Below, in pieces: positions 13,908 to 64,000 of a stretch of DNA of 64,000 nucleotides; the first letter of the stretch is position 1; every line of letters starts with the position of its first letter. Location of the stretch: contig OX597838.1 of the NCBI GenBank assembly GCA_951406725.2, positions 1 to 64,000 on the forward strand, in the 5' to 3' direction. The translations under genes and the position numbers were made by a program. Under the pieces are notes generated by a model. It had not been told where the DNA came from and made no database searches. It saw only the letters and a program-made list of their open reading frames with translations. Source of the DNA: Octopus vulgaris. Taxonomy: Eukaryota.

Positions 13908-16807
13908 TCTATCTATATATATATATAAAATCCTTTGCATCGCTGTCTGTTTCCAAAGCATTCTCAAATGGCTGAACGAAATCAAATCAAATTTTACATG
14001 GTAAATACTATGAGACTCCAGGAGTGTCAACATGTACTTTTCGGGGATTAATTTACACTACATACAAAAATACAGGCATACTATACACAGTATATTAATA
14101 AACACACACACATCTACACATACATACCTGACAACTGACATGCGTGAAGTAGCCAGTGTGAATAGGAATTTTTATTTTCATTTCCATTAAAACAATACAC
14201 ATTTACTGTTCCATTACCAGTTAATAATTATCGCAACAGTTGCAAGGTTGGAAGGTAAAATATAAAATTCCTCGTCTCTCTGTAATAATTATTGTTGCAT
14301 TTCCTGTTAAATTAGCAGTTCCATACATGTGCTTCTATTTTGTTCATTTGCTTATATTTCGTTAATTTACACAGCATACAAAAATACAAACATACTGCAT
14401 ACATACAACTGCTTACAAAAATATTGATTAATGTATAATTTTGTCTATGTTCATAATTTTGTGTTTTACAATACTGCAAAAAATATGCCACCAAAGAAAA
14501 GATGTAATCTCTCAAACACATATAAAGCGAGGACAATTGCAGAAAACCAAAGGTGAGAGACTCAACAGAAAAGGGAGACGAGACTTTCTCAAGATCAGCA
14601 GAGGCATGCTGCAGCACGTCAAATGGAGTCTCAAGAGGGAAGGGTGATGAGACTTTCCCAAGATCAGCAGAGGCATGCTGCAGCACGTCAAATGGAGTCT
14701 CAAGAGGGAAGGGTGATGAGACTTTCCCAAGATCAGCAGAGGCATGCTGCAGCACGTCAAATGGAGTCTCAAGAGGGAAGGGTGATGAGACTTTCCCAAG
14801 ATCAGCAGAGGCATGCTGCAGCACGTCAAATGGAGTCTCAAGAGGGAAGGGTGATGAGACTTTCCCAAGATCAGCAGAGGCATGCTGCAGCACATCAAAT
14901 GGAGTCTCAAGAGGGAAGGGTGATGAGACTTTCTCAAGATCAGCAGAGGCATGCTGCAGCACGTCAAATGGAGTCTCAAGAGAGAAGGGTGATGAGACTT
15001 TCCCAAGATCAGCAGAGGCATGCTGCAGCACGTCAAATGGAGTCTCAAGAGAAAAGGGTGATGAGACTTTCCCAAGATCAGCAGAGGCATGCTGCAGCAC
15101 GTCAAATGGAGTCTCAAGAGGGAAGGGTGATGAGACTTTCTCAAGATCAGCAGAGGCATGCTGCAGCACGTCAAATGGAGTCTCAAGAGAGAAGGGTGAT
15201 GAGACTTTCCCAAGATCAGCAGAGGCATGCTGCAGCACATCAAATGGAGTCTCAAGAGAGAAGGGTGATGAGACTTTCCCAAGATCAGCAGAGGCATGCT
15301 GCCGCACATCAAATGGAGTCTCAAGAGAGAAGGGTGATGAGACTTTCCCAAGATCAGCAGAGGCATGCTGCAGCACGTCAAATGGAGTCTCAAGAGGGAA
15401 GGGTGATGAGACTTTCCCAAGATCAGCAGAGGCATGCTGCAGCACGTCAAATGGAGTCTCAAGAGGGAAGGGTGATGAGACTTTCTCAAGATCAGCAGAG
15501 GCATGCTGCAGCACGTCAAATGGAGTCTCAAGAGGGAAGGGTGATGAGACTTTCTCAAGATCAGCAGAGGCATGCTGCAGCACGTCAAATGGAGTCTCAA
15601 GAGGGAAGGGTGATGAGACTTTCCCAAGATCAGCAGAGGCATGCTGCAGCACGTCAAATGGAGTCTCAAGAGGGAAGGGTGATGAGACTTTCCCAAGATC
15701 AGCAGAGGCATGCTGCAGCACGTCAAATGGAGTCTCAAGAGGGAAGGGTGATGAGACTTTCTCAAGATCAGCAGAGGCATGCTGCAGCACGTCAAATGGA
15801 GTCTCAAGAGGGAAGGATGATGAGACTTTCTCAAGATCAGCAGAGGCATGCTGCAGCACGTGAAATGGAGTCTCAAGAGAGAAGGGTGATGAGACTTTCC
15901 CAAGATCAGCAGAAGCATGCTGCAGCACGTCAAATGGAGTCTCAAGAGGGAAGGGTGATGAGACTTTCCCAAGATCAGCAGAGGCATGCTGCAGCACGTC
16001 AAATGGAGTCTCAAGAGGGAAGGGTGATGAGACTTTCCCAAGATCAGCAGAGGCATGCTGCAGCACGTCAAATGGAGTCTCAAGAGGGAAGGGTGATGAG
16101 ACTTTCCCAAGATCAGCAGAGGCATGCTGCAGCACGTCAAATGGAGTCTCAAGAGGGAAGGGTGATGAGACTTTCCCAAGATCAGCAGAGGCATGCTGCA
16201 GCACGTCAAATGGAGTCTCAAGAGGGAAGGGTGATGAGACTTTCCCAAGATCAGCAGAGGCATGCTGCAGCACGTCAAATGGAGTCTCAAGAGGGAAGGG
16301 TGATGAGACTTTCCCAAGATCAGCAGAGGCATGCTGCAGCACGTCAAATGGAGTCTCAAGAGGGAAGGGTGATGAGACTTTCTCAAGATCAGCAGAGGCA
16401 TGCTGCAGCACGTCAAATGGAGTCTCAAGAGGGAAGGGTGATGAGACTTTCCCAAGATTATCTAAGGCATACTGCAACACTTAATGCTGAATCATTAGAA
16501 CAATGTTTAGCATGCCAGATTAGACAGAAGTCCAATACAATAGCTCTCAGAAATAGACCACATGCAAATTCGTTCTTCACAACTCCAGGAGCTGCTTTCA
16601 TATATGATCCATCCTAGTCTTATAAAAATGATAATTCTGTACAAATTCTCATTTCTGCAAAGCTTTCAAATTATCAAATGAAGCTAATAGCATGTGCTGC
16701 TCAGGCATTAAGGTAAGACTGCCAGCACTACCAGCTCCTCCTTCGGCCTCTTATGGATCTTCTGGAAAGCTTCCTTCCAGTCAAAGGATTTTCTGAACAA
16801 TATCAGC
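13908..16807 (+). mobile_element. Helitron 5' portion, truncated by an RTE insertion
   Basis: 5' a|TC start (TCTATCTATATATA..AAAA). Coding begins MPPKKR, then STPR-like repeats, AAFIYDPS*SY, HFCKAFK..E..SMCCSGIKVRLP..P.PP and SKDFLNNISQYN, all typical of the RepHel N-terminus. Confidence 0.85.
14485..16807 (+). pseudogene. Helitron RepHel N-terminal pseudogene with a 69-bp (23-aa) STPR-like tandem repeat
   Basis: ATG at 14485, in-frame TGA at 14554, ORF 14623-16617 of (MESQEGRVMRLSQDQQRHAAARQ)n, TAG at 16615, then a frameshifted Cys-rich region. Confidence 0.8.
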
Positions 16808-48522: not shown

Positions 48523-51303
48523 AGCCACCGAAACCTCTTCACAGGTAGTCCAGGGATGAGATTGAGAACATCCTCACTAACTACAGACTGCTGGTTCAAA
48601 AGTCCATCAAAGTGTTCTCACCACCTTCGCAGAATCCCTTGTGAATCATGAAGTTCTTTACCATTCCTGCTTCATCAGAGAAGAAGTCGGTCCATAAACT
48701 TCTCGCAAGAGACCATACAACAGCTTTGTGTTATTGGAATCCGCTGCCGCCTGTATCTCATCAGCCTTCTTACTCCACCACGTATCCCTCATCTGAGAGA
48801 GCCTCCGCCTCACACGTGATTTCACATCCTTGAGTTCCCTATGCAACACCTCCCTCTCCTGTGGCTTTGCTGACAAATAGCGTGACAAAGTACATCTTTT
48901 ATCAGCCAATAAATCTTCTATATGTTCATCATTTTCTTTAAACCAATCTTGATGCTTTCTTTGTATCAATCCCAGAACTTTCCTGCCTATATTATAAACT
49001 AATTCTTTAAGGGTCAGCCAATCCTCCCCAATAACTGCAACATTCATTTCCTCTCGTAAAGTTCTCTTCACATTATTACATCTGAGGAGCAACATTCATT
49101 CTTTTAGGCAGGGTAATACCTGCAGCCCGGATTTTACGTTTTGTGATTAATTTCACTTTTGCACGTACCAGGTGGTGATCAGTCCAACACTCAGTCCCAC
49201 GAAGAACACGAACACACTGCACATGTCGTCTGTCATGCACACTAACAAGGATGTAATCCAGAATGGATTTCCAATTGCAGTCAATGTGTTAAAATCCCTA
49301 CCCACTCTAGCATTAAAGTCACCCAGTACGACGACTGTCTGCCCGAGGGATATTTACCTCCGCCAAGGAAGGAGGTTATGTTTTCATTGGCGTTGGTTTG
49401 TCCATCAGCCCGTCTGTGTGCAAAATAACTCAAAAAGTTGTGATACAAGGAACAGATGATGAGATTTTGGTAGTGATCCGGGAATTTTTATGGATTCTTG
49501 AAAGATTTTTCATTTGTTATATCTACTTTACATGAAGTATTACAATGTTACGTTCTTTGGTTATCTCCCTTGAAAACACGCTCATCGTTTCCACGTAACC
49601 TATGGTGGCGTTGCTGTTTCCAAAGTTTATTTTCGTTTCTCTATTAGTAACCAAGGTAGGGGGTTATGTTTTCATTGGCGTTGGTTTGTCCGTCTGTCTG
49701 TCTGTGTGCAAAATAACTCAAAAAGTGTTGTGAACGGTATTTGATGAAACTTGCAGGATGTGTATCACTCAAGTTTTAGGTGATTGTTGTTTCTTTTCAG
49801 TTGTATGGTGAAACTAGCTTGCTGTTGTCCTTGACGTATTAGAACTACTTCAGATGATTCCTGTTTTTAAAGGGTTTTTTTTAAAGTCATATGGCCGTGT
49901 TTTTTTACCCCCCCCCCCCGCCAAGGGGTTATGTTTTTGCCGGCGTTGGTTTGGGAAATGGGGCGATTTTCAGCATGCGTGTATATGGGTGGAAATGAGC
50001 TGCTTGGCGGAGGTCTGCGCTCTCCGAGTGCTTTTCTAGTTCTTATAATGCCCTTCAAAGCATGGTAGAAAGAAACTTTTTCGTCATCAGTAGAGCTCAT
50101 AGTTGGAGCATACACACTCACCAAGGTTACATAATTTCCTTTCACCAAAGGAATTCTCATGGACATAAGACGCTCGTTAATCCCGACTAGGAATTCTTCC
50201 AAATTGTCCACAAAAGTAGTCTTAACAGTAAATGCTACTCCAGCCTCTCCTCTAAACTTTTCATCTCTCCCTTTCCAGAAGAATGAATATTTTCCACAAG
50301 ATGACCATCTCCAGCTAATCTCGTCATAGCGTCAAAACTCCTTTGCAACAAGAGCAGTCCTTTGTTCAGGACATTCTGAGGACTCGCAGTCAAGCAGTGT
50401 CCGTACATTCCAACAGCCAATATTCAATATTTTATTTGATTCTATCACAGAAGCATGATGATGGCCGGGTTCAGATTGTGATGCTCTGGAGCCCCTGCCG
50501 GACCAGACACTTTCACCTAATGTGGTTCCAGAGTCCTTATTACCATATATTTTTATATTGTTTTGGTACAGCATTGATTGTTTGCTATTTAAGGCTACAT
50601 CCAGCCATTCAGTTGAGACTCATAGCACTATCAACAATCATCAATTAGTTAATTCATTAATCAATCAATCAATGTTGTTATCGTGCAGTGCCTGTGCAAG
50701 AAGATTTTATTTTTAAAGTGAGGGAATGCTGTGCACAGAGTCAATCCCACTCACTAAACAACAGCAGCCATAACCTGAAAAGAAGAACAAGTCAACATCA
50801 TCGGTAACCACTGAGCCGCAGGTTTTATGTCGGAGTTATCCCATTTACCTGAGTTGCCTTCTTTTAGAATGATGCCCTAACAAGGGCTAGGGGTCTTTCA
50901 CTCCCAATGGTTTAACCGCGCGATAAGGTATTCAGTCCGATTATTTCTATGTCCCCGCGCAAAATACAAACATTAGCTGGATAAAATAGATATAAGAAAG
51001 AAAAAAAAACACGCACGATATATAAAAATATTGATATACAATATATACATAAAATATACGATATGGAATACAAAACAATATATATAATGAGCAAACTATA
51101 AAAATATACAATATATAAAATTAGCGAGAAAAAGTGGGATATACAGTAAATACATAATTACACACATATTAAATGGCCGTTGACTCTCAAGAGTTCCTCC
51201 GCCTTTTGACGACGAGCTTTGTTTTTCATCCGGCAGGGTGGCTAATAAACAAACACCCCCCTTACCAAGTAAGCTTGGTGGGGTTGCCGGTTTAGTCGCC
51301 GAT
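48523..51303 (-). mobile_element. Degenerate RTE-clade LINE 5' half (5' UTR, APE, linker)
   Basis: NIGCWNVRTLLD, ERLMSMRIPL, SVYAPT, LGDFNARVG, RKHQDWF.EN, WWSKKADEIQ.AAD. Confidence 0.85.
49353..50040 (+). mobile_element. Helentron-associated (DINE-1/HINE-like) non-autonomous element inserted in the RTE
   Basis: Subterminal inverted repeats CCTCCGCCAAG / CTTGGCGGAGG, 3' hairpin GCGCTCTCCGAGTGC then TTTTCTAG, GTCT repeats, T-rich junctions. Confidence 0.8.
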
Positions 51304-52500: not shown

Positions 52501-53391
52501 ATATTAAGTAAATATCAAGCTTGGCACATAAGTATCGGCCGAATGATATTCTTCCGGTGCATGTAGACAAAAAATCTTACGAAGGGCAGATTCCGAGATA
52601 ATTAAATAAAATATGAGTAACAGTAGAAGTACAAATGTCAACCCATTACAGCCGTTTCTAACGACTCCTTTGATTGATTAATGAAAACATTACATCATTG
52701 TAAAGAAACTGTTTTCATCAGATAAAATCATGAACTTCAAAATAAAGGACATTCAAAATAATTTAACAGTTTAAAATCCACGGAGCAAAAAGATTCACAG
52801 TGATTCTGCGACTATTTCAGTTGGCAGAATGGATTTACCGGAATAGTGTATATTTGACCAGAACAGAGAAATCTAGGGGTTAGTAGAGTTTTTATAGAAC
52901 ATGTGTTGCGTGTTAACTCGTGGAAATAATACAAGAAACGAACTTTAGAATAACAACAAGGCTTATTCTTCTGCTAAATTATACAATGGACCAAATAACG
53001 CATCATAAATTCTGTTGGTTGGATAGTTCATCCATCGTTAGGATAATTCATCTCTGGCCATCGTTCGTTACAAGTGCCTCATTATCAGCAAGAAAATATG
53101 ATGTATGCCCTGGGAAATTCTCTCACCTCTCTAATCATAATAATTTTTTATAACGTAGTTTCTGTATATATCACCTTCGTGTCGTGCACTAATAACAGTG
53201 TCATATATACAGTACTACGGAACGGGGTAGACACCAACTGTCTCCATTTGTTGTATTCCTAAAATACTCTGCCAACAACTGTAACCAATTCAAAACTACT
53301 CTTAACGAATTATAACAACTGCTCTTCAGTTTCCTGCAATTCCACAAACTCACGAACGACACCTTTCGACTTCATGTGATTTCTCACCTCT

Positions 53392-55200
53392 CTGTTTCTT
53401 CATTAAGCACTCAGGCTCGTATACAGAGGGGACAGCAAAGGACAGACAGAATACCACAGCGGGAACAAAAATATAAAACGAATGAAAAAGGAGTGATGTA
53501 TAAAAATAACTGATGGTAGAATGGATGCATTGAACCCCACTCCCAAGCAGTACCATTTAACAGTTAAATTATACAAATTAACAAATCTTTCTTACACTGT
53601 CTTTTTTTTTTTACTTTTAGTATCGTTATCTCTTCCTTTTTTCCCCTTTTTTGGAGGGAAAGTCTATTATTTCTGTATTTAAAAACAAATTTTTTTACTT
53701 ACTTTACTCATTTTAACAGTTCATAAAGGGTTTCAAATCTTTATGGCAATTCGTCGAATTCGACTTTTACCCCCAACGGGTCTATACTATTTCCGAACAG
53801 TTCTTTCAGTTTCTCATATCTATCCTTGTCAATAATTATTCCCGAGGTTTCTTCTTAATATTTTTCCGGTGGTAACCTCACTCTTATGACTGATCTAAAC
53901 TTCGTAATCTTCCGCTCGATTGCCCTACTTTTGGCATATGCGACCATGTGCCACTTGTTTTTTCTCGTTTTAACATCCGTTTGCTTCAGCGACGGACCTG
54001 GGCTGTCCGCGCGAGTCGTTCCCCTTGGTTCCTTTCTTGCTGCACCAAAATAAGCTTCAATGTGTAAGTCTTCCACATCGTGAAGTACCGATGTTTCTAC
54101 TTCCACTCTACTTTCCATTGTTGATTCTGCTGGTGTTTCGCACTATTCCTTTCCTCCATCTCAATCTCCTTCATACTCTTCTGGCTCTCCGGCGGAGAGA
54201 TCATTCTTTCATTCCTCTTCTTCATATTTACGACGGTGAATGATTCCTCCACTCTATCTTTCTCTCTTTCCGGTATTACCACTTCGGCACTGATTTTCCC
54301 TTTTTTGCTCATCTTCGGTTTTCTTTCTGGGGGCACTTTGCTTTCAGGTGCCCCCTTTGACCACATAAGAAACACGTTTGTGGTCTTCCTTCCACTACTA
54401 CTCTCAGTCAGACGTCTTCTGGGAGAATGATCTCTGTAATTTCGTGCCAGACTTTTAAGCTCACTTCTATGGCCATCTCGAGGCTATACTCCCATCAATT
54501 AACCTTTTTAGTTCTCATAATCTTTAAGATTTTAACCTCATCCTCCATTCTATGCCTGACTGCTGCCACCAGCCCTGCTTCATTAATCTCGTGGGGTACT
54601 CTGCCAATTCTTACTCTGGCGACGCGTTTGCCACAATAAGTCGGCAGAAGTACCCATTCTTCTGTCCTTATCGGCTCAGTGGCGTGGTTTATCGCGTCTT
54701 CTTTGCTAAACCTTACTTCCACTGTGCCGTATTTCCACGCCTCTTTATTTCCTTGGGGCACTCCTCAATTGTTTTGATTGGAGTAACCGCTATCTTTTTA
54801 GAGGACCTAGATAACGTTCTGTACACCACCGTCCTCTTCATCACATTGTTCGTCAATTCTTGCGGTGCAGTCAGCTTCAAACTGCCTCCTTTCTTTTCTA
54901 TTAATTTACTTCCTTCCACTTCCTGGGTTTTACTTTAATTTCACGTACTTCCAAGTCGTCGGCAGATATTCCTTTACTCGTGGCTGATGCGTAACTTCCA
55001 GTTGGTTTATTTTCCATACCTCCTCTTTTTCCCACCTCACCCATAATTGGATAGGAAAATAAATACGATAACAGCAAAAACAGCAACAAAAGTTCAAAAT
55101 TTAACCAATTTAACCAATTTAACAAATCCTAGGTTCACACACACGGGGAGACTTATAACAAACAAACAGCTTACTTCGGAATCACAAGAAATCCAGTAAA
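53392..55200 (-). mobile_element. ORF1-only Tx1/L1-like element (E0), frameshifted
   Basis: SYASAT, YGTVEVRF, LLPTYCGKR, VVEGRPQTCFLCGQ knuckle, C-terminal KWHMVAY; no ORF2; 3' tail like E1-E3. Confidence 0.8.
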
Positions 55201-55209
55201 CAGAGTTGT

Positions 55210-56110
55210 CTCTGATCTTGAGAGCTCAGCAAATACATTCTGAAGACGAATTAGATAGATTACTGGAGAAAAAAATGTATCAGCAAATCCAGTCTCCTCA
55301 GGTCACCCCCACCCGTTTCTAGATAATTATGGTATTTTCAGAATAGGTGATAGATTGGCTGAGTCTACAGTTGAAACCAAGAATCCGGTCATATTGTCAA
55401 GTAAACATGCCCTTGCTGAGTGTATTGCTGCTCATTTTCACAGAAAAGCTCATGTAGGGGAAGAATGGGCTTCGGGACTTATCAGACCGCATTATTAGAT
55501 TACAGGTGGTAGAGCTGTTGTCAAGAAAGTTATCCGTTCATGTGTTGTTTGTAGGAATTTATTTTCCAAGCCGGTTCCTCAAATTATGACGAATCTCCAC
55601 AGGGTGAGAGTTGAATCAGATAAACCTCTTCTTACACACACTGGTGTAGATGTCTTTGGACATTTCATGGTCAAAGTCAATCGTTCAGAAGTAAAGCGTT
55701 ACGATTGTATGTTCACATGTCTTGTAACTAGAGCGGTACATATAGAGATGTTACATAGTCTAGACACTGAATCTTTCATCAATTGTTTTCGCAGATTTAT
55801 GTCTACAAGGCGTCACACAGAGAAGGTTTACTCAGACAATGGTACAAACTTTGTTGGGGCTAAAGCTGAGTTAAAAAGGGCTTTACAGGAGTTATCTCAG
55901 ACTGATATCCAAGCTTATGAATTGGATCGAAACATAGATTGGCATTTTAACCAACTTGCAGCTTCTCATATGGGGCGAGTTTGGTAACGCATGATAGGTT
56001 GTGCTAGGAGAGTTATGGAAAGATTACTGTCTGGTCCTGTTAGACTTACTGATGAGATTCTAGAGACGATGTTCGCAGAGGTTGAATCTATTTTGAATGG
56101 TTAGACCGTT
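55210..56110 (+). mobile_element. BEL/Pao integrase remnant
   Basis: PVIL, C..C, TGVDVFG, FTCLVTRAVHIE, YSDNGTNFVGA, WHFN..AASHMG.VW. Confidence 0.92.
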
Positions 56111-57374: not shown

Positions 57375-57603
57375 TATCGTGAAGTATATTTGCCACTTAA
57401 ATGTGGCTAACCCTTAAGAGTGGATGCTACTGTAGCTGGTAGACCCAGGAGGACTCCTCCTCCAGTTGGCTATTGACACACCTTCTGTGACCTATCAGTA
57501 TTTACAAAGGGAAGCCACCCTTCCCATCTCCAACCTGACGTGATACACACTGACTCGAGTTTCTGGATATTAACCTGTCATCAGCGTGTGACAATCACCG
57601 GTT
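57375..57603 (-). mobile_element. Penelope-like pseudo-LTR segment; continues at 61270-61492, where 57375-57453 is repeated
   Basis: ATCGTGAAGTATATTT..GGATGCTACTGTAGCT..CCCAGGAGGACT occurs at both sites; contains a hammerhead motif. Confidence 0.6.
57546..57590 (-). ncRNA. Minimal type-I hammerhead ribozyme motif
   Basis: CACAC-G-CUGAUGA-CAGG-UUAAUAU-CCA-GAAAC-UCGA-GUC-A-GUGUG: intact core, palindromic stem III, GUC site; stem II is weak and the stem I closing pair is mismatched. Confidence 0.6.
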
Positions 57604-58090
57604 TTTCTATTTACTATAGGCATAAAGCCTTATATAGAAAGGACATTACAAGGACAAACGTGGGGTACATAGAATGATTTACGAATGAATTATGAGATGT
57701 GAAAAATTATGGTAATGAAATGGCTTCCCACTCCCTGGAGTAGAAATTTCCATTTTGCTGTTTTTACAATTCAACTTATATCGTATTTATAACACAGAAG
57801 CCATTACCTCTTCAAATTCTACCACATGTGGTAATTCATCATATCGAAATCGGAACTCTACTTCCAAACATCTTTTGCCTGTCACCGCAGCATAACTACC
57901 TGTCTGGACCTGTGAATTCATATTTCCGTTATTCACCGCTTCACCCATAAATGGGGAAGCCAAACAAAATCTTCAACAATTTCACAAATGCAACACAATA
58001 TTCAACAATTCAACAGTACATTAAATCAAAAATTCCGTAATTCAACATTTCAGAAATTCAAATAAAAAGCCGTAACTCACATCCACAAGT
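57604..58090 (-). mobile_element. ORF1-only family element E1 (internally deleted, ~490 bp)
   Basis: Retains the C-terminal FRYDELPHVVEF and the shared 3' tail; flanked by the 14-bp repeat. Confidence 0.75.
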
Positions 58091-58104
58091 GGCAATCACC
58101 GGTT

Positions 58105-59628
58105 TATCTCTTTATTATAGGCACAAGGACTGAATACAGAGAGGACATATACAAACATGCGGGAACAAAAAAAAACACATGAAAGAATGAATTACAATGA
58201 ATTAAATTATAATGAATATGAGACAGTTTTCTCGGTTCCGCTCCGAGACGAAACCGCGATTACTTTTTTTACAATTAAACGTTCTTACAGTCTTTTTTCT
58301 TTTTTTTCCTTTTTCACTTGTTCTTTTTCTTAGTCTTTTTTTTTATCGTTTTTTTCCTTTTTCTTTATACATTTTAACAGTCTATTTTCCTATTTTTTTT
58401 TATGAAGTACGAATTTATTGATTTATTTTTAAATGCTCATAAAGGGTTTCAAATCTTTTAATTCCACGATCGGTGGGAGCTCGTCAAACTCGACTTCAAC
58501 CCCCAGCGGGTCTATGTAAAGTTGATACATCTCTCTTAATTTCAAATATCTCTCTTTATCTATGACTATTCCGTTTGTATATTCCGGGTATTTTCCTGGC
58601 GGCAGGTTTACTCTTATTACCGATTTAAATTTTACAATCGTTTTCTCTATTTCTTTACTTTTGAAATAAGTGACCAAATGCCACTTGTATCTCTTCCTTT
58701 TCACTTCTTCTTGCTTCGGCTCCCGTCCTGATCTGTTTGGGCGTGCAGGAACATCATAACCAATTTTATGAACGCTTCATTTTTCTCCCTGTTGTAATGC
58801 TGTTTTTTCCTGTGTGCCTTCTTTCATCATTGCTTCATTTTAGTGCTTCCCACCTATTTCTCTTTTCTTCCATCACAATCTCCTTTAGCCTTTTTTGACT
58901 TTCTGGAGTCCACCAATTGGACTTTGGGGTCCTCTTCATCTTGAATATTTCTACTCCATCCTTCATATCGTGCATAATGGCTGCTACCAGCCATTCTTCC
59001 TCGATTTCGGTGGGTACTCTTCCAACTCTCACTCTGGCTGCGCGTTTACCACAGTACGTCGGAAGTAGTATCCATTTTGTTGTCCGTAATGGCTCCATGG
59101 CGTGGTTTATGGCATCTTCTTCGTTGCCAAACCTTACTTCCACTGAGCCATACTTCTTTCCACGTGTATAGAACGTGGTCAATTTTTTCACATTTTCTAG
59201 GCATTCCTCTCTTTCTTCTGTTGGGGCTACCTCTTTTGTTCGAGGATGAAGATAACGTTCTGTATACTACCGTCCTCTTTTCTATGCTTTTCATCAGTTC
59301 TTCTGGGGGAGTCAGCTTTAGACTATTTCCCTCCTTTTTTACAAATTTTCTTCCTTCCTTCCTCTTTCCTGTGTCCATTTCTATTTCTTGCAATTCCAGG
59401 GTGTTGGTATTTATTCCTTGTGTCGTTGCCGCTGCATAACTTTGTCTATTCTCCATCTTTCTTCACTCCTCCCGTAGACAGGGATTATACAGGTGACTGA
59501 AATTCAATAATTTACACAATCCAACGAATCTTGGTTCACCCGCGCGGGGAAACCTACAACAAACATACAATATCCGTGTGTAACGATTTGAACTCACATC
59601 GAAGAAATCACAACCAACACCCGTTAGA
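58105..59628 (-). mobile_element. ORF1-only Tx1/L1-like element E2
   Basis: MENRQSYAAAT, YGSVEVRF, LLPTYCGKR, C-terminal EFDELPPIVE; closely related to E0. Confidence 0.85.
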
Positions 59629-59642
59629 GACAATCACCGGTT

Positions 59643-61269
59643 TCTCTTTATTATAGGCACAATGGCCTGAATGAAGAGGGGACATAACAATAAAATACAG
59701 GACATGGGGTACATATAATAAAAATACAAAAAGGATTATATGAAATGAAATATTAACCATGAATTAAATGAAATGGCTTACGAGCCCCCCAAAGCTCGCA
59801 GTTTCACTTACAATTACAGTTATACTATCCTGGGTGTTCGTCCGTAATTTAAACGAGTAATTCATCTTGCTCTATAACGCCGGGCAAACTGTCATATCGA
59901 ACGTAATGCTTTATGGTTACAACTGTATCTGAAAATGAATTTCTTAATTTATTTACCGTCTCTCTTTCCACTATTGCAGCCTTTGTTTTGTCATCGTACA
60001 TCCTCGGGTTCAATTTCACTCTCGTTAGATTCTTCGTTACTGCTAATTTTTTCTCAATTTCTTTATTTTTGTGTACAATATTACAGCTCTGAGATTCTTT
60101 CCTTTGGGTCTTCCTCCTTCCTTGCATGTTTTCAGACATTCTTCCACTTTTGTTGACCATTTTACCGCTTCCTCCACCTTGAACCTTCACTCACTTTAGT
60201 TGCTGTATCTCTCCCTTCGTGCGTTCGATCCTCTGTCTCGTCAGCATACTTCTTTTTAGTTTTTTTTCTTTTTTTGGTCTTTGGGTGGTGATTCCACCCG
60301 TGTTCGCTTTCTATCCTCTTTTTCTTCTGTTCTTCACTAACTCGTCGTCACTTTTCATATTATCTCCTAAATCCTCTGTCAAAGCTCTTATTGCTTCCTC
60401 CAGGATCATCTTCTCTTGTATTTCTCCTTCAGGACACACATCCTTCATGTGCCCTCTTCTCTTACATTTATAACACACTGGAGGTCTCCCCTCCACCACG
60501 ACTCTCAGTCGTGTCTCGTCGGGGAACACCAACTCCTCCGGGATGTTATACAAATCTGGCATGGTTATGTGGACTAAAGCTTGCACCGCATAACCCCACC
60601 AGTTTATTTCATTCGACTTTTCCACCTTAAGTATGTCCATGCTCTCCTTGCAGTTGTAGATTATTCAGCTACTATTCTTTCGGTATCAAGTTCCGGTGGG
60701 ATTTTGCTTATTCGTATCCTCACTACTCTTTTCCACAATAACTAGGGAATAAAACCCATTTTTTCCGATCTCAACACTGTCGTTGCGTTCCTTTTCGCTT
60801 CGTCTTCATTTTAGAAGCGAACGTCCACCGTAGCGTATTTTCTACCTCTATTGTAGAAGGTAGTTCTTCCTTTAATTTCTTGTAGACATTTTTCAATCTC
60901 TTCCACCTCTGCTACTTCTATTCTCTTTGAGACCACATTCCTTGTTCTGTATGTTATGATTTTTTTCTCCGCTTTTTTCAATTCGTCTTCAGGTGGTGTA
61001 ACCCTCAGACGGTCTCCTTCCTTTTTGAAACTGTCGTAGTATTTCCTCAAATTTTCCTTCTCGATAATTATTTCTTCCAACTGTAGAAGGTAGTTCTTCC
61101 TTTAATTTCTTGTAGACATTTTGCCTGCTGCTCCCGCATAAGTTTGGGCTTGCATACCCAACAAATAATTCAACAATTCAACACGACGCAACATTTTTCA
61201 ACAACAATAATCAACAAAATTCAACTCACAACCGCAAATCCGAAAAAACCGACACAAACACTTCCGCGC
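59643..61269 (-). mobile_element. ORF1-only Tx1/L1-like element E3 with a CCHC zinc knuckle
   Basis: YATVDVRF, NWWGY, VVVEGRPPVCYKCKRRGHMKDVC, C-terminal RYDSLPGVIE. Confidence 0.85.
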
Positions 61270-61939
61270 GACAATCACCGGTTGCCGATCTGGAGTGGTT
61301 CCCAACGCAAATATATACATTCTTTTTCCAGTGACGAAAAGTCACTGATCTCGAAAAAGTGTAGACAAGCAATAATAATTCTCTGAGCGAGGTATAAGCA
61401 GTAGCTGCATGACATCGTGAAGTATATTTATCACTTAAATTTGGCTAACCCTTGAGGGTGGATGCTACTGTAGCTTGTAGCCCCAGGAGGACTGTTCAAA
61501 TAGTTTTGTATTTAAGTTTATCGTATTTTTGTATTTTTTTAAATTTTGCAGTCTACCATACACTTGCCGTACATTTGTATGTTCACGGGCAATACGTGCA
61601 GAGTGTAACGTATGAGTAGAAAATAAAAGGTTCTAAAGTTTAAACCATTGTTCGTCTTTGTTATTACAGTAGTGATTGTGACTCCGCTCGCCTGGATTTC
61701 TACACGAAGCCGCAATACCATTCACATGCTTTATCTTAAATACATACAGCTGTCTTAGAAGCTAAATCAATTGAAAATCACACAATAATGATATGAAAGA
61801 TCACAGATAATGGCTATGAGAAGCAGAGTCAAATAAGCCAGTACAAAATGAGTTAAAGCAAAACATTAAAACTTTATTTGAAGTTAAGACTAAAACAGCA
61901 ATAAAACTGAATCCCTCTTACAGTCATTCACATCTTCGT

Positions 61940-62942: not shown

Positions 62943-64000
62943 CAGTGTTTCCCAACCTTTTTATGACAAACGCCCCCACCCCAGAACATTTGGATGCCTT
63001 CACCGCCCCGCCAATCCAATATGAGCGCTGACGGAAGTAATGTTTCTTATGATTTATTTAGAAATAGAACAAGATTTTACATGTATACATTTTATTGACA
63101 GCAACATTTACCGACTGCATTGGATGCTTGCACATCAGTGTGATCCCTGCTGGTGATCAGCCGCAAGTTTAAGAATACTTGGTTCTAAATTTCACAAAAG
63201 AAGTCGTAAATCACCAGGCTGTAGTACGACGCCTAATCAGTTTCTGCCTTTAGTAAAAACTTGGTTTACCGCGCTAAATACCTTCTTCATCAGGTAAGAT
63301 GATGGGAATATAATGAAAAATAGCATTGCTTCATTCCAGAGTAAAGAAAACTTCACACTGCAATGCAACCACATTTCATGCAGGCCTTCATTTTCAAAGA
63401 TCATCTTTCCTTCTTCGTCACATTGTAACTCGACAATGTCCTTCTGCAAATCAATATTTTGTTCCTCTGGTTTGCACACAGATGGCTTCTTTACCCAATC
63501 AGGAATATTCAATTCCATCAAATCTTTAAATCTTGTCTGAAAGTCATCACTGAGTTGCTGTAGATGTGCACAATAGGCTCTCAGATCATATTCAGTAAAT
63601 ACGTGTGAAATGCTTTTCATGGACGGAAACTGACAAAACTCCTTCCTTCCCAGGTTTTGTTTGTACAGTTTGATTTTGCTTATGAAACTGATTGCACTTT
63701 TCGCTTGAATGAGGGTAAAATTATTCCTTTGCAGTTGCAAATTTAAAACGTTCATCTTGTAAATATATCAGCCAAGTAAGCCACATCACCGCGTATGAAG
63801 TCAACATGTGTTGTTGCTAAGTGGAACTGATTTCAAAGTCTTTGTGTCAGCTTTAAGAACAGTCGTAAGAATTTCGAGGATTGAGTGCATTATCAGAGTT
63901 TCTTCAATTGTGTGCGGTTTTCCACATTTAGTTATAAATTTTGATATCCTGGATGAAGCAATGATATTAGTCTCAATTTCAGGCTTAGGTGCTTTAAATG
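62943..64000 (-). mobile_element. hAT (Charlie/Buster-like, ZBED/SCAND3-type) transposon remnant, internally deleted
   Basis: TIR CAGTGTTTCCCAACCTTTT; VAYLADI, MNVLNLQLQ, FPSSYL...FSAV, CGKPHTI.E.LI. Confidence 0.9.

Follow-up and report, generated by a model that had tools for sequence, protein, structure and literature searches.

Here we describe a stack of three retroelements in a 64,000-nucleotide stretch of Octopus vulgaris DNA (assembly GCA_951406725.2, contig OX597838.1, positions 1 to 64,000 of the forward strand), which we call the window. The elements, named E1, E2, and E3, all lie on the minus strand and are separated by copies of the same 14-bp repeat (the 14-mer), which their 3' tails adjoin (Table 1). 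A scan at up to two mismatches found 5 matches to the 14-mer in the window against 0.27 expected, and the outer flanks of the stack are the two halves of a single repeat that occurs uninterrupted elsewhere (L012, L013, L016). A first-pass annotation had proposed that four such repeats delimit three non-identical, co-oriented elements, and that the 14-mer is a target-site duplication (TSD) left by target-primed insertion, so that removing the elements restores the target. The layout is confirmed; the TSD reading gains support from TSDs that differ between loci yet agree on both sides of an element, and the restored target from the two matching halves. In short, the stack very probably consists of three decayed copies of elements carrying only the first open reading frame (ORF1) of a long interspersed nuclear element (LINE), likely inserted successively by the endonuclease and reverse transcriptase (RT) of a related site-specific LINE of the L1/Tx1 group. 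Both the repeated use of one site and the L1/Tx1 link had been suggested before, and both are upheld by the comparisons below.

Table 1. The stack, its duplicated target site, and its host repeat in window coordinates
Feature	Position	Strand	Basis or remark
Host repeat, downstream half (hammerhead-bearing, retrozyme-like)	57376..57589	-	84-91% to uninterrupted copies
Type I hammerhead motif (predicted)	57546..57592	-	descriptor scan; covariation over 35 copies
TSD copy beside ribozyme motif	57590..57603	+	14-mer scan, exact
E1, internally deleted remnant of ORF1-only family	57604..58090	-	similarity to L068/L174, L153/L154
TSD copy with one mismatch	58091..58104	+	14-mer scan
E2, ORF1-only family member	58105..59628	-	family ~1.8 kb; ~300-bp internal deletion, frameshift
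TSD copy between E2 and E3	59629..59642	+	14-mer scan, exact
E3, full-length ORF1-only family member	59643..61269	-	1.6-1.7 kb; frameshifted CCHC ORF1
TSD copy on upstream side of stack	61270..61283	+	14-mer scan, exact
Host repeat, upstream half	61284..61413	-	77-88% to uninterrupted copies
Partial second host monomer, partial-tandem arrangement	61414..61493	-	91% to 57376-57455

The three elements

At the DNA level E1, E2, and E3 have little in common beyond a tail of ~50 nt. E1 (487 bp) is the most reduced: it matches L068/L174 at 91% over its 3' 230 bp and L153/L154 at 72-75% in its 5' part, has no alignable ORF1 body, and by eye retains only the first and last codons. The deletion in E2 removes the zinc-knuckle region. 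E3 belongs to a discrete ORF1-only family with copies of ~1.6-1.7 kb at 30 loci, one of which (L103) holds an intact CCHC ORF1 of 460 amino acids (aa). The earlier label of ORF1-only elements thus holds at the level of families, with E2 and E3 frameshifted and E1 mostly deleted. No match to a second frame (ORF2) was found by tblastn in E1-E3 or inside the E3-family loci L076-L105.

The zinc knuckle PF00098 scores 18.2 bits in the E3-family ORF1, under the cut-off, and the only protein relative found for this ORF1 is a sequence named from Octopus bimaculoides. Comparing one pair of frames from two ORF1-only families (L103 and L160, 240 codons) gave rates of nonsynonymous (dN) and synonymous (dS) substitution of 0.215 and 1.73, hence a dN/dS of 0.12 with dS near saturation; judged from this pair, the ORF1 of these families is kept under selection.

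The host repeat and its predicted ribozyme

The stack interrupts a dispersed, non-coding repeat with a 358-bp monomer (host A), accompanied in the window by 80 bp of a second monomer. It carries what the first-pass annotation had missed as host of the 14-mer, namely a type I hammerhead motif with a core at 57584-57578, GAAAC at 57563-57559, a palindromic loop 3, and a cleavage site predicted to fall between 57552 and 57551. In the window copy, stems I and II contain mismatches. Across an alignment of 35 copies, 87.3% of the cells in the hammerhead helices are paired (69.4% after shuffling, at most 47.5% in slid controls), and 11 of the 13 hammerhead pairs changed on both sides. The copies were picked by core anchors, and 11 of 45 thinned rows were omitted for close relationship or visible damage, a choice that raises the pairing figure.

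Genome-wide (G000, 2.8 Gb) the 14-mer occurs in 527 exact copies, compared with 8 for its reversed control. Among the first 30 of these places, 25 have a CUGANGA-type core that follows the 14-mer, in element sense, at a distance of exactly 5 nt; a single one is preceded by an element tail and the others lie in uninterrupted repeat, so the sites in this sample are mostly empty. Among the best 29 other copies of the window host, 5 are filled and 24 unfilled. The 14-mer is not an element terminus, as it is present in empty sites while TSDs vary with the locus.

Host A and another host of ~330 bp (host C, in tandem) are short non-coding tandem monomers with a type I hammerhead, and we regard the host repeat as retrozyme-like. 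None of the sequencing runs listed for it is recorded as RNA. The predicted ribozyme has the build known from metazoan type I hammerheads, with a 6-bp helix I, a short helix III with palindromic loop, and inverted neighbors (PMC4209133). Five pairs among the first 30 places are such inverted neighbors, 109-382 bp apart. They had suggested the terminal repeat of a miniature inverted-repeat transposable element (a DNA transposon) as host; this was abandoned when the pairs turned out to be ribozyme repeats in inverted arrangement. Four junctions with the tail TATAATAAATCTCTG (L139, L143, L161, L166) were set aside as host rearrangements instead of elements.

Two further hammerhead-like motifs were observed. 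An isolated match at window 40443 (minus strand) has six stem I pairs and is unrelated to the host repeat, and an abundant, decayed Penelope-like family (L426-L455) has a terminal repeat with a different hammerhead-like motif and a long stem II.

Insertion preference across the genome

Copies for the flank test were picked by element similarity alone. The E2 set yielded 25 distinct 3' junctions, 13 of which adjoin a hammerhead repeat, 8 another element's 5' end, and 4 other sequence; the corresponding figures for the 26 junctions of the E3 set are 19, 4, and 3. Without the window's own three rows, 41 of 48 E2/E3-family 3' ends meet a hammerhead repeat or a stacked element, and in each of two masked controls 0 of 1000 random 110-nt stretches matched the hosts. 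In a first, lenient host test, microsatellites raised the background to 121-150 matches per 1000 random stretches; the masking that removed this background also took L051 and L097 out of the host class. As a comparison, relatives of E0, another element of the window that had been noted to lack this flank and indeed does, gave 0 of 11 junctions at a hammerhead repeat. The flanks of the E2 and E3 families are thus not random.

TSDs go with the host sequence at each locus. For 21 E3 copies the TSD match averages 9.9 nt at the own locus versus 5.2 nt across loci, and none of 10,000 permutations was as high. A search for the tail joined to the site returned 40 genomic matches against 1 for the control.

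The annotation had taken the 14-mer itself for the specificity, which did not hold up. E3 copies also sit in diverged "B" hosts that lack the 14-mer and cannot be aligned to the window host outside the ribozyme region. Its entry points in these hosts all lie 18-30 nt ahead of the core, and its TSDs measure ~9-21 bp; the site is a fixed position 5' of the hammerhead motif, always in ribozyme-sense orientation, in several diverged repeat families. Because E3 enters diverged hammerhead repeats without the 14-mer, the target is, on these sequence comparisons, the class of ribozyme repeats, and the 14-mer the TSD produced in one host subfamily. The arrays had also been read as an ordered record of insertions; this reading is without support, because TSD mismatches, nick offsets, and divergence (~90-92% to the nearest relatives) gave no polarity within stacks.

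Autonomous relatives in the same repeats

A zf-RVT search and a protein search brought up two-ORF LINEs, many of them intact, that encode a CCHC ORF1 (29% identical to that of E3) and an ORF2 of 1140 aa with an apurinic-type endonuclease (APE), an RT, and a zinc finger. PF03372, PF00078, and PF13966 score over the cut-off in ORF2, which ends in a C-terminal zinc finger and has human L1 ORF2p as its best PDB match (E 1.6e-66); in the ORF1 of family A1, PF00098 passes its cut-off with 23.1 bits. Based on these domains, the CCHC ORF1, and the repeat target with TSDs, we file the putative autonomous partners as L1/Tx1 group and no further; no named Tx1 reference for grouping the RT came up in the searches made.

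To sample their insertion sites, 72 ORF2 3' ends were taken from 70 loci, namely the top 30 protein hits and 40 of the other 83, chosen blind to the flank. Of these, 29 adjoin a hammerhead core, 5 adjoin a host TSD and then a further element, and 4 adjoin the first position (+1) of U2 small nuclear RNA (snRNA); outgroup ORF2 ends gave 0 of 18 at a hammerhead core. Full-length two-ORF copies occur in host A variants with 14-20-bp TSDs, and family A1 uses a third host, whose core is of the U3-A8 variant, and is arrayed in tandem on C2. Autonomous and ORF1-only elements are mixed within stacks at L357, L361, L368, and L421. Beside the 3' end of one outgroup LINE lies a long tandem repeat with a unit of ~135 bp (L252, 2758-6447). 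Among metagenome contigs, no distant ORF2 relatives were confirmed.

One locus, L344, is an ORF2 fragment whose tail and exact 14-mer junction are those of E3. A set of 40 junction loci examined for the mobilizer contained only ORF1-only or truncated copies, and because no full-length copy of the L344-type family was recovered, we can only infer the mobilizer of E1-E3. The annotation's call for an autonomous element is therefore answered in part, by two-ORF relatives in the same repeats.

Changes of target

A quickly built tree from the 330 C-terminal residues of ORF2 (51 rows, L352 omitted, midpoint root, the careful search unfinished) unites 35 rows with support 100. Since insertions into hammerhead repeats are present on every early branch of this clade, with the families that use other targets lying inside it, the tree, short of a formal test, suggests that targeting of the ribozyme repeat is ancestral.

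Family A4 illustrates such a change. Besides the hosts, it occupies sites immediately ahead of full-length U2 snRNA sequences (Rfam 179-185 bits); between the host and U2 forms, 234 of 238 endonuclease residues (98%) are identical, and both sites read ATCG-N5-YGG. Insertions at U2 position +1, with a 17-bp TSD and stacked, belong to a LINE sub-lineage seen at L277, L279, L282, L366, L367, and L406. On C3 and C23, copies inserted at U2 still have a host-type TSD of 14 nt at their 5' end, and it starts with ATCG. An E3-type tail joined to the U2 start was met in a single contig, from a run labeled as another organism, and is a hint only.

Sister LINE families, many of them in 5.3-kb tandem arrays, have at least four further fixed targets (L302-L309, L292, L293, L311, L314, L313, L317, L320, L422), one of which (L320) lies 30 nt behind a clear TATAAAA. 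Searches of 20 loci of sister-family and E0 targets gave no Rfam match. Two off-target copies (L097, L424) begin with a piece of U1 snRNA, its first 17-26 nt, joined to the element's 5' end. U1 was considered as a second start-site target and rejected, with a LINE tail upstream at 0 of the 20 U1 places examined out of 42; because of this absence the U1 pieces are better read as template switches. Some 20 U1 snRNA-like copies cluster on C18 of G000 (48.97-49.21 Mb).

Weighing the alternatives

Several results weigh against site-specific insertion into ribozyme repeats as the account of the stack. The two-sided TSD match is not significant for the 6 E2 copies (791 of 10,000 permutations), no single sequence motif covers all E3-family nick sites, and Rfam finds no hammerhead in the window or in 10 loci. 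Among the 72 ORF2 ends, 30 fall at other sequence and 4 have no tail; the 30 comprise sister families that use different targets, along with some degenerate hosts and a few off-target copies. Finally, no full-length copy with the exact nick position of E1-E3 was found, L356-L358 being truncated or deleted.

The strongest competitor, which we consider unlikely yet worth keeping in mind, holds that the site is chosen by position or structure (the base of the long ribozyme hairpin, extruded in DNA or within an R-loop, or else tethering to the host promoter) and not by the sequence preference of the endonuclease. The position of E3 nicks, 18-30 nt before the core across hosts of differing sequence, would fit, as would the U2 +1 insertions and the host-type TSDs that U2-inserted copies retain on two chromosomes. 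In the folds of 3 of 5 hosts the nick lies near the base of a long hairpin (z -2.9 to -4.5), as it does weakly in 1 of 3 earlier folds, but the other 2 folds are not significant, and helices tile the 5' arm, so that chance alone would readily place a nick close to the edge of a helix. Against structure also speak the plain sequence motif common to the A4 targets, the off-host site L290 included, and the move of sister families to ribozyme-free targets with ~90% identical endonucleases.

Far less probable is that one or a few chance insertions were amplified as composites by a repeat-moving Penelope-like RT, the flank being inherited and not targeted. Retrozymes are thought to be mobilized by Penelope-like elements (PMC7229834; bioRxiv 10.64898/2026.07.22.740005), the young A1 family has near-identical host flanks, and some E3 copies share common flanks (L078, L082, L084). 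Yet the E3 family occupies hosts that are mutually unalignable outside the ribozyme region, both TSD copies follow the local host allele, different families succeed one another in varying order within the mixed stacks listed above, and at least seven ORF2 subgroups are found in these repeats. One Penelope-like family, with motifs recognized by eye and no Pfam hit, was seen at 29 other loci with a different hammerhead repeat and not in window-type hosts; no Penelope ORF linked to the hosts was found in this one family, other families not having been searched. Local tandem duplication, unequal recombination, or a 14-mer that is the terminal repeat of the element has next to no standing, and in the window the unlike spacers and the existence of empty sites refute it: some stacks do contain one family several times over (L175, L236-L238), but the window elements share little besides their tail, and the 14-mer is present in empty hosts and changes with the host.

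A possible mechanism

Returning to insertion by a site-specific LINE, in APE-type elements the endonuclease chooses the site and a staggered second nick yields the TSD (PMC4494074). Here, the APE endonuclease would nick the bottom strand at the 5' boundary of the TSD through a short, degenerate sequence preference, for one family probably ATCG-N5-YGG, common to the hosts and U2 +1. ORF1-only RNAs, which have the shared A-rich tail, would borrow ORF2; the tail would prime reverse transcription, and insertion would take place at the 5' edge of the ribozyme domain. With the second nick 9-21 nt further on, a TSD would arise, and its renewed use would build stacks while leaving the ribozyme motif intact behind the last element.

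We also propose, with somewhat less than even confidence, that the site lies at or just after the transcription start of the host and that the element is transcribed from the host promoter. This is favored because of the U2 +1 site, the host pieces kept at 5' ends, and TATA-like motifs: in the upstream host half (minus strand), a TATA-like run at 61317-61309 lies 28 nt before the ATCG at 61289-61286, and such a motif starts 24-35 nt before the TSD in 5 of 8 non-U2 flanks. Promoter capture is countered by the AT-rich genome and the mere 5 of 8 flanks, by the internal, TATA-less promoter of Drosophila Penelope (PMC2377424), and by the lack of U1 targeting among the 20 places examined.

A broader scenario, to our mind rather doubtful, is that the LINE clade is specialized for the transcription start of retrozymes: the upstream half of the host would supply the promoter, the downstream hammerhead the RNA 3' end, and the site would be found by position or fold in sequences that are otherwise unrelated; from this ancestral niche, U2 +1 and other starts would have been reached with few endonuclease changes. 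If true, we would be looking at a three-tier parasitism of ORF1-only elements on LINEs on retrozymes, and the use of host promoter and ribozyme would amount to a borrowed version of the R2 strategy (co-transcription and ribozyme processing).

Neighboring features of the window

E0 itself lies at 53394-55190 on the minus strand, next to a short element of ~250 bp bounded by a 12-mer (53121-53132 and 53382-53393). Because of this repeated 12-mer, the pair resembles another small stack, built at a different target. The relatives of E0 (70-80% identical) are in other repeats, several of them ~25-45 nt behind TATA-like boxes (L379, L381, L383, L395, L396, L401). Directly upstream of E0, a broken integrase fragment at 55260-56100 (plus strand) has a weak rve match and presumably derives from a BEL/Pao-type long terminal repeat (LTR) element. 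Other LINE clades are represented by endonuclease- and RT-like fragments at 49867-50331 (minus strand) and, as RT-like pieces, near 16806, 23910, 29948, and 34921; their similarity to our ORF2 is only 24-27%. An open frame of 176 aa at 63237-63767 (minus strand) has a weak, probably spurious Pfam match; it resembles a hAT/SCAN-type transposase remnant.

Comparison with known systems

Transposon-targeting Tx1 LINEs, tandem stacks, ORF1-only elements, and the class of mechanism are all known already, whereas the ribozyme or retrozyme target class appears undescribed so far. The annotation's claim of an undescribed specificity thus survives for the target class and not for the stacking. In the literature searched, which did not extend to Repbase, subscription papers, or the supplement of PMC4494074 (it lists Tx1 targets and may bear on novelty), no LINEs targeting hammerhead repeats, retrozymes, or Penelope ends were found; the accessible text of PMC3846280, PMC8869645, and PMC11167929 holds nothing on such targeting. 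An octopus repeat annotation reports 13 recently active L1-Tx1 families, and the words "target", "nested", and "ribozyme" are absent from it (PMC13282606).

Hammerhead-ribozyme repeats would join a short list of targets of APE-type site-specific LINEs. How APE endonucleases change their specificity is a long-open question, for which side-by-side switches are experimentally useful. Within one genome, intact young families with endonucleases 79-98% identical use different targets (several ribozyme repeats, U2 +1, and others), so that a change of specificity becomes testable by swapping few residues. Site-specific LINEs whose target is non-genic and present in many copies also hold interest as tools for gene insertion.

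On the side of the host, animal non-LTR retrozymes are related to the pseudo-LTRs (pLTRs) of Penelope elements (PMC7229834; bioRxiv 10.64898/2026.07.22.740005). Our repeats resemble both in their tandem monomers (150-450 bp in these accounts), type I hammerheads, and 6-bp helix I (PMC7229834, PMC4209133, bioRxiv 10.64898/2026.07.22.740005), as well as in the short helix III with palindromic loop, inverted neighbors (100-700 bp), and the U3-A8 core variant. The accessible parts of the same three accounts do not mention LINE insertion, whereas here LINEs insert.

The U2-inserted copies recall Keno and Utopia but differ in using position +1 and in forming a sub-lineage nested among ribozyme-repeat-targeting copies. 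The U2 site of Keno and Utopia is reportedly internal. The two share one U2 site and occasionally insert in tandem (PMC4640811). HAL1 (half-L1) likewise comprises non-autonomous LINE derivatives that code for ORF1 only (PMC5753468); it is a mammalian derivative of L1 for which the accessible text mentions no site specificity, whereas we find several ORF1-only families sharing a specific target. Tx1L in Tx1D of Xenopus is, like our system, an APE-type LINE at a fixed site in a non-autonomous transposon (PMC4494074), there a single DNA-transposon target and here several diverged ribozyme-repeat families.

Tx1-Mar LINEs and SINEU of crocodilians are a further parallel, with Mariner, Harbinger, or LTR elements or microsatellites as targets (PMC4494074). 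As in our case, Tx1-group LINEs and their non-autonomous partners prefer another transposon and insert in tandem, U1 and U2 pieces are found on 5' ends, and co-transcription from the target has been proposed (PMC4494074). The difference lies in the players: there the partners are short interspersed nuclear elements, and here they are ORF1-coding elements on a non-coding, hammerhead-bearing repeat.

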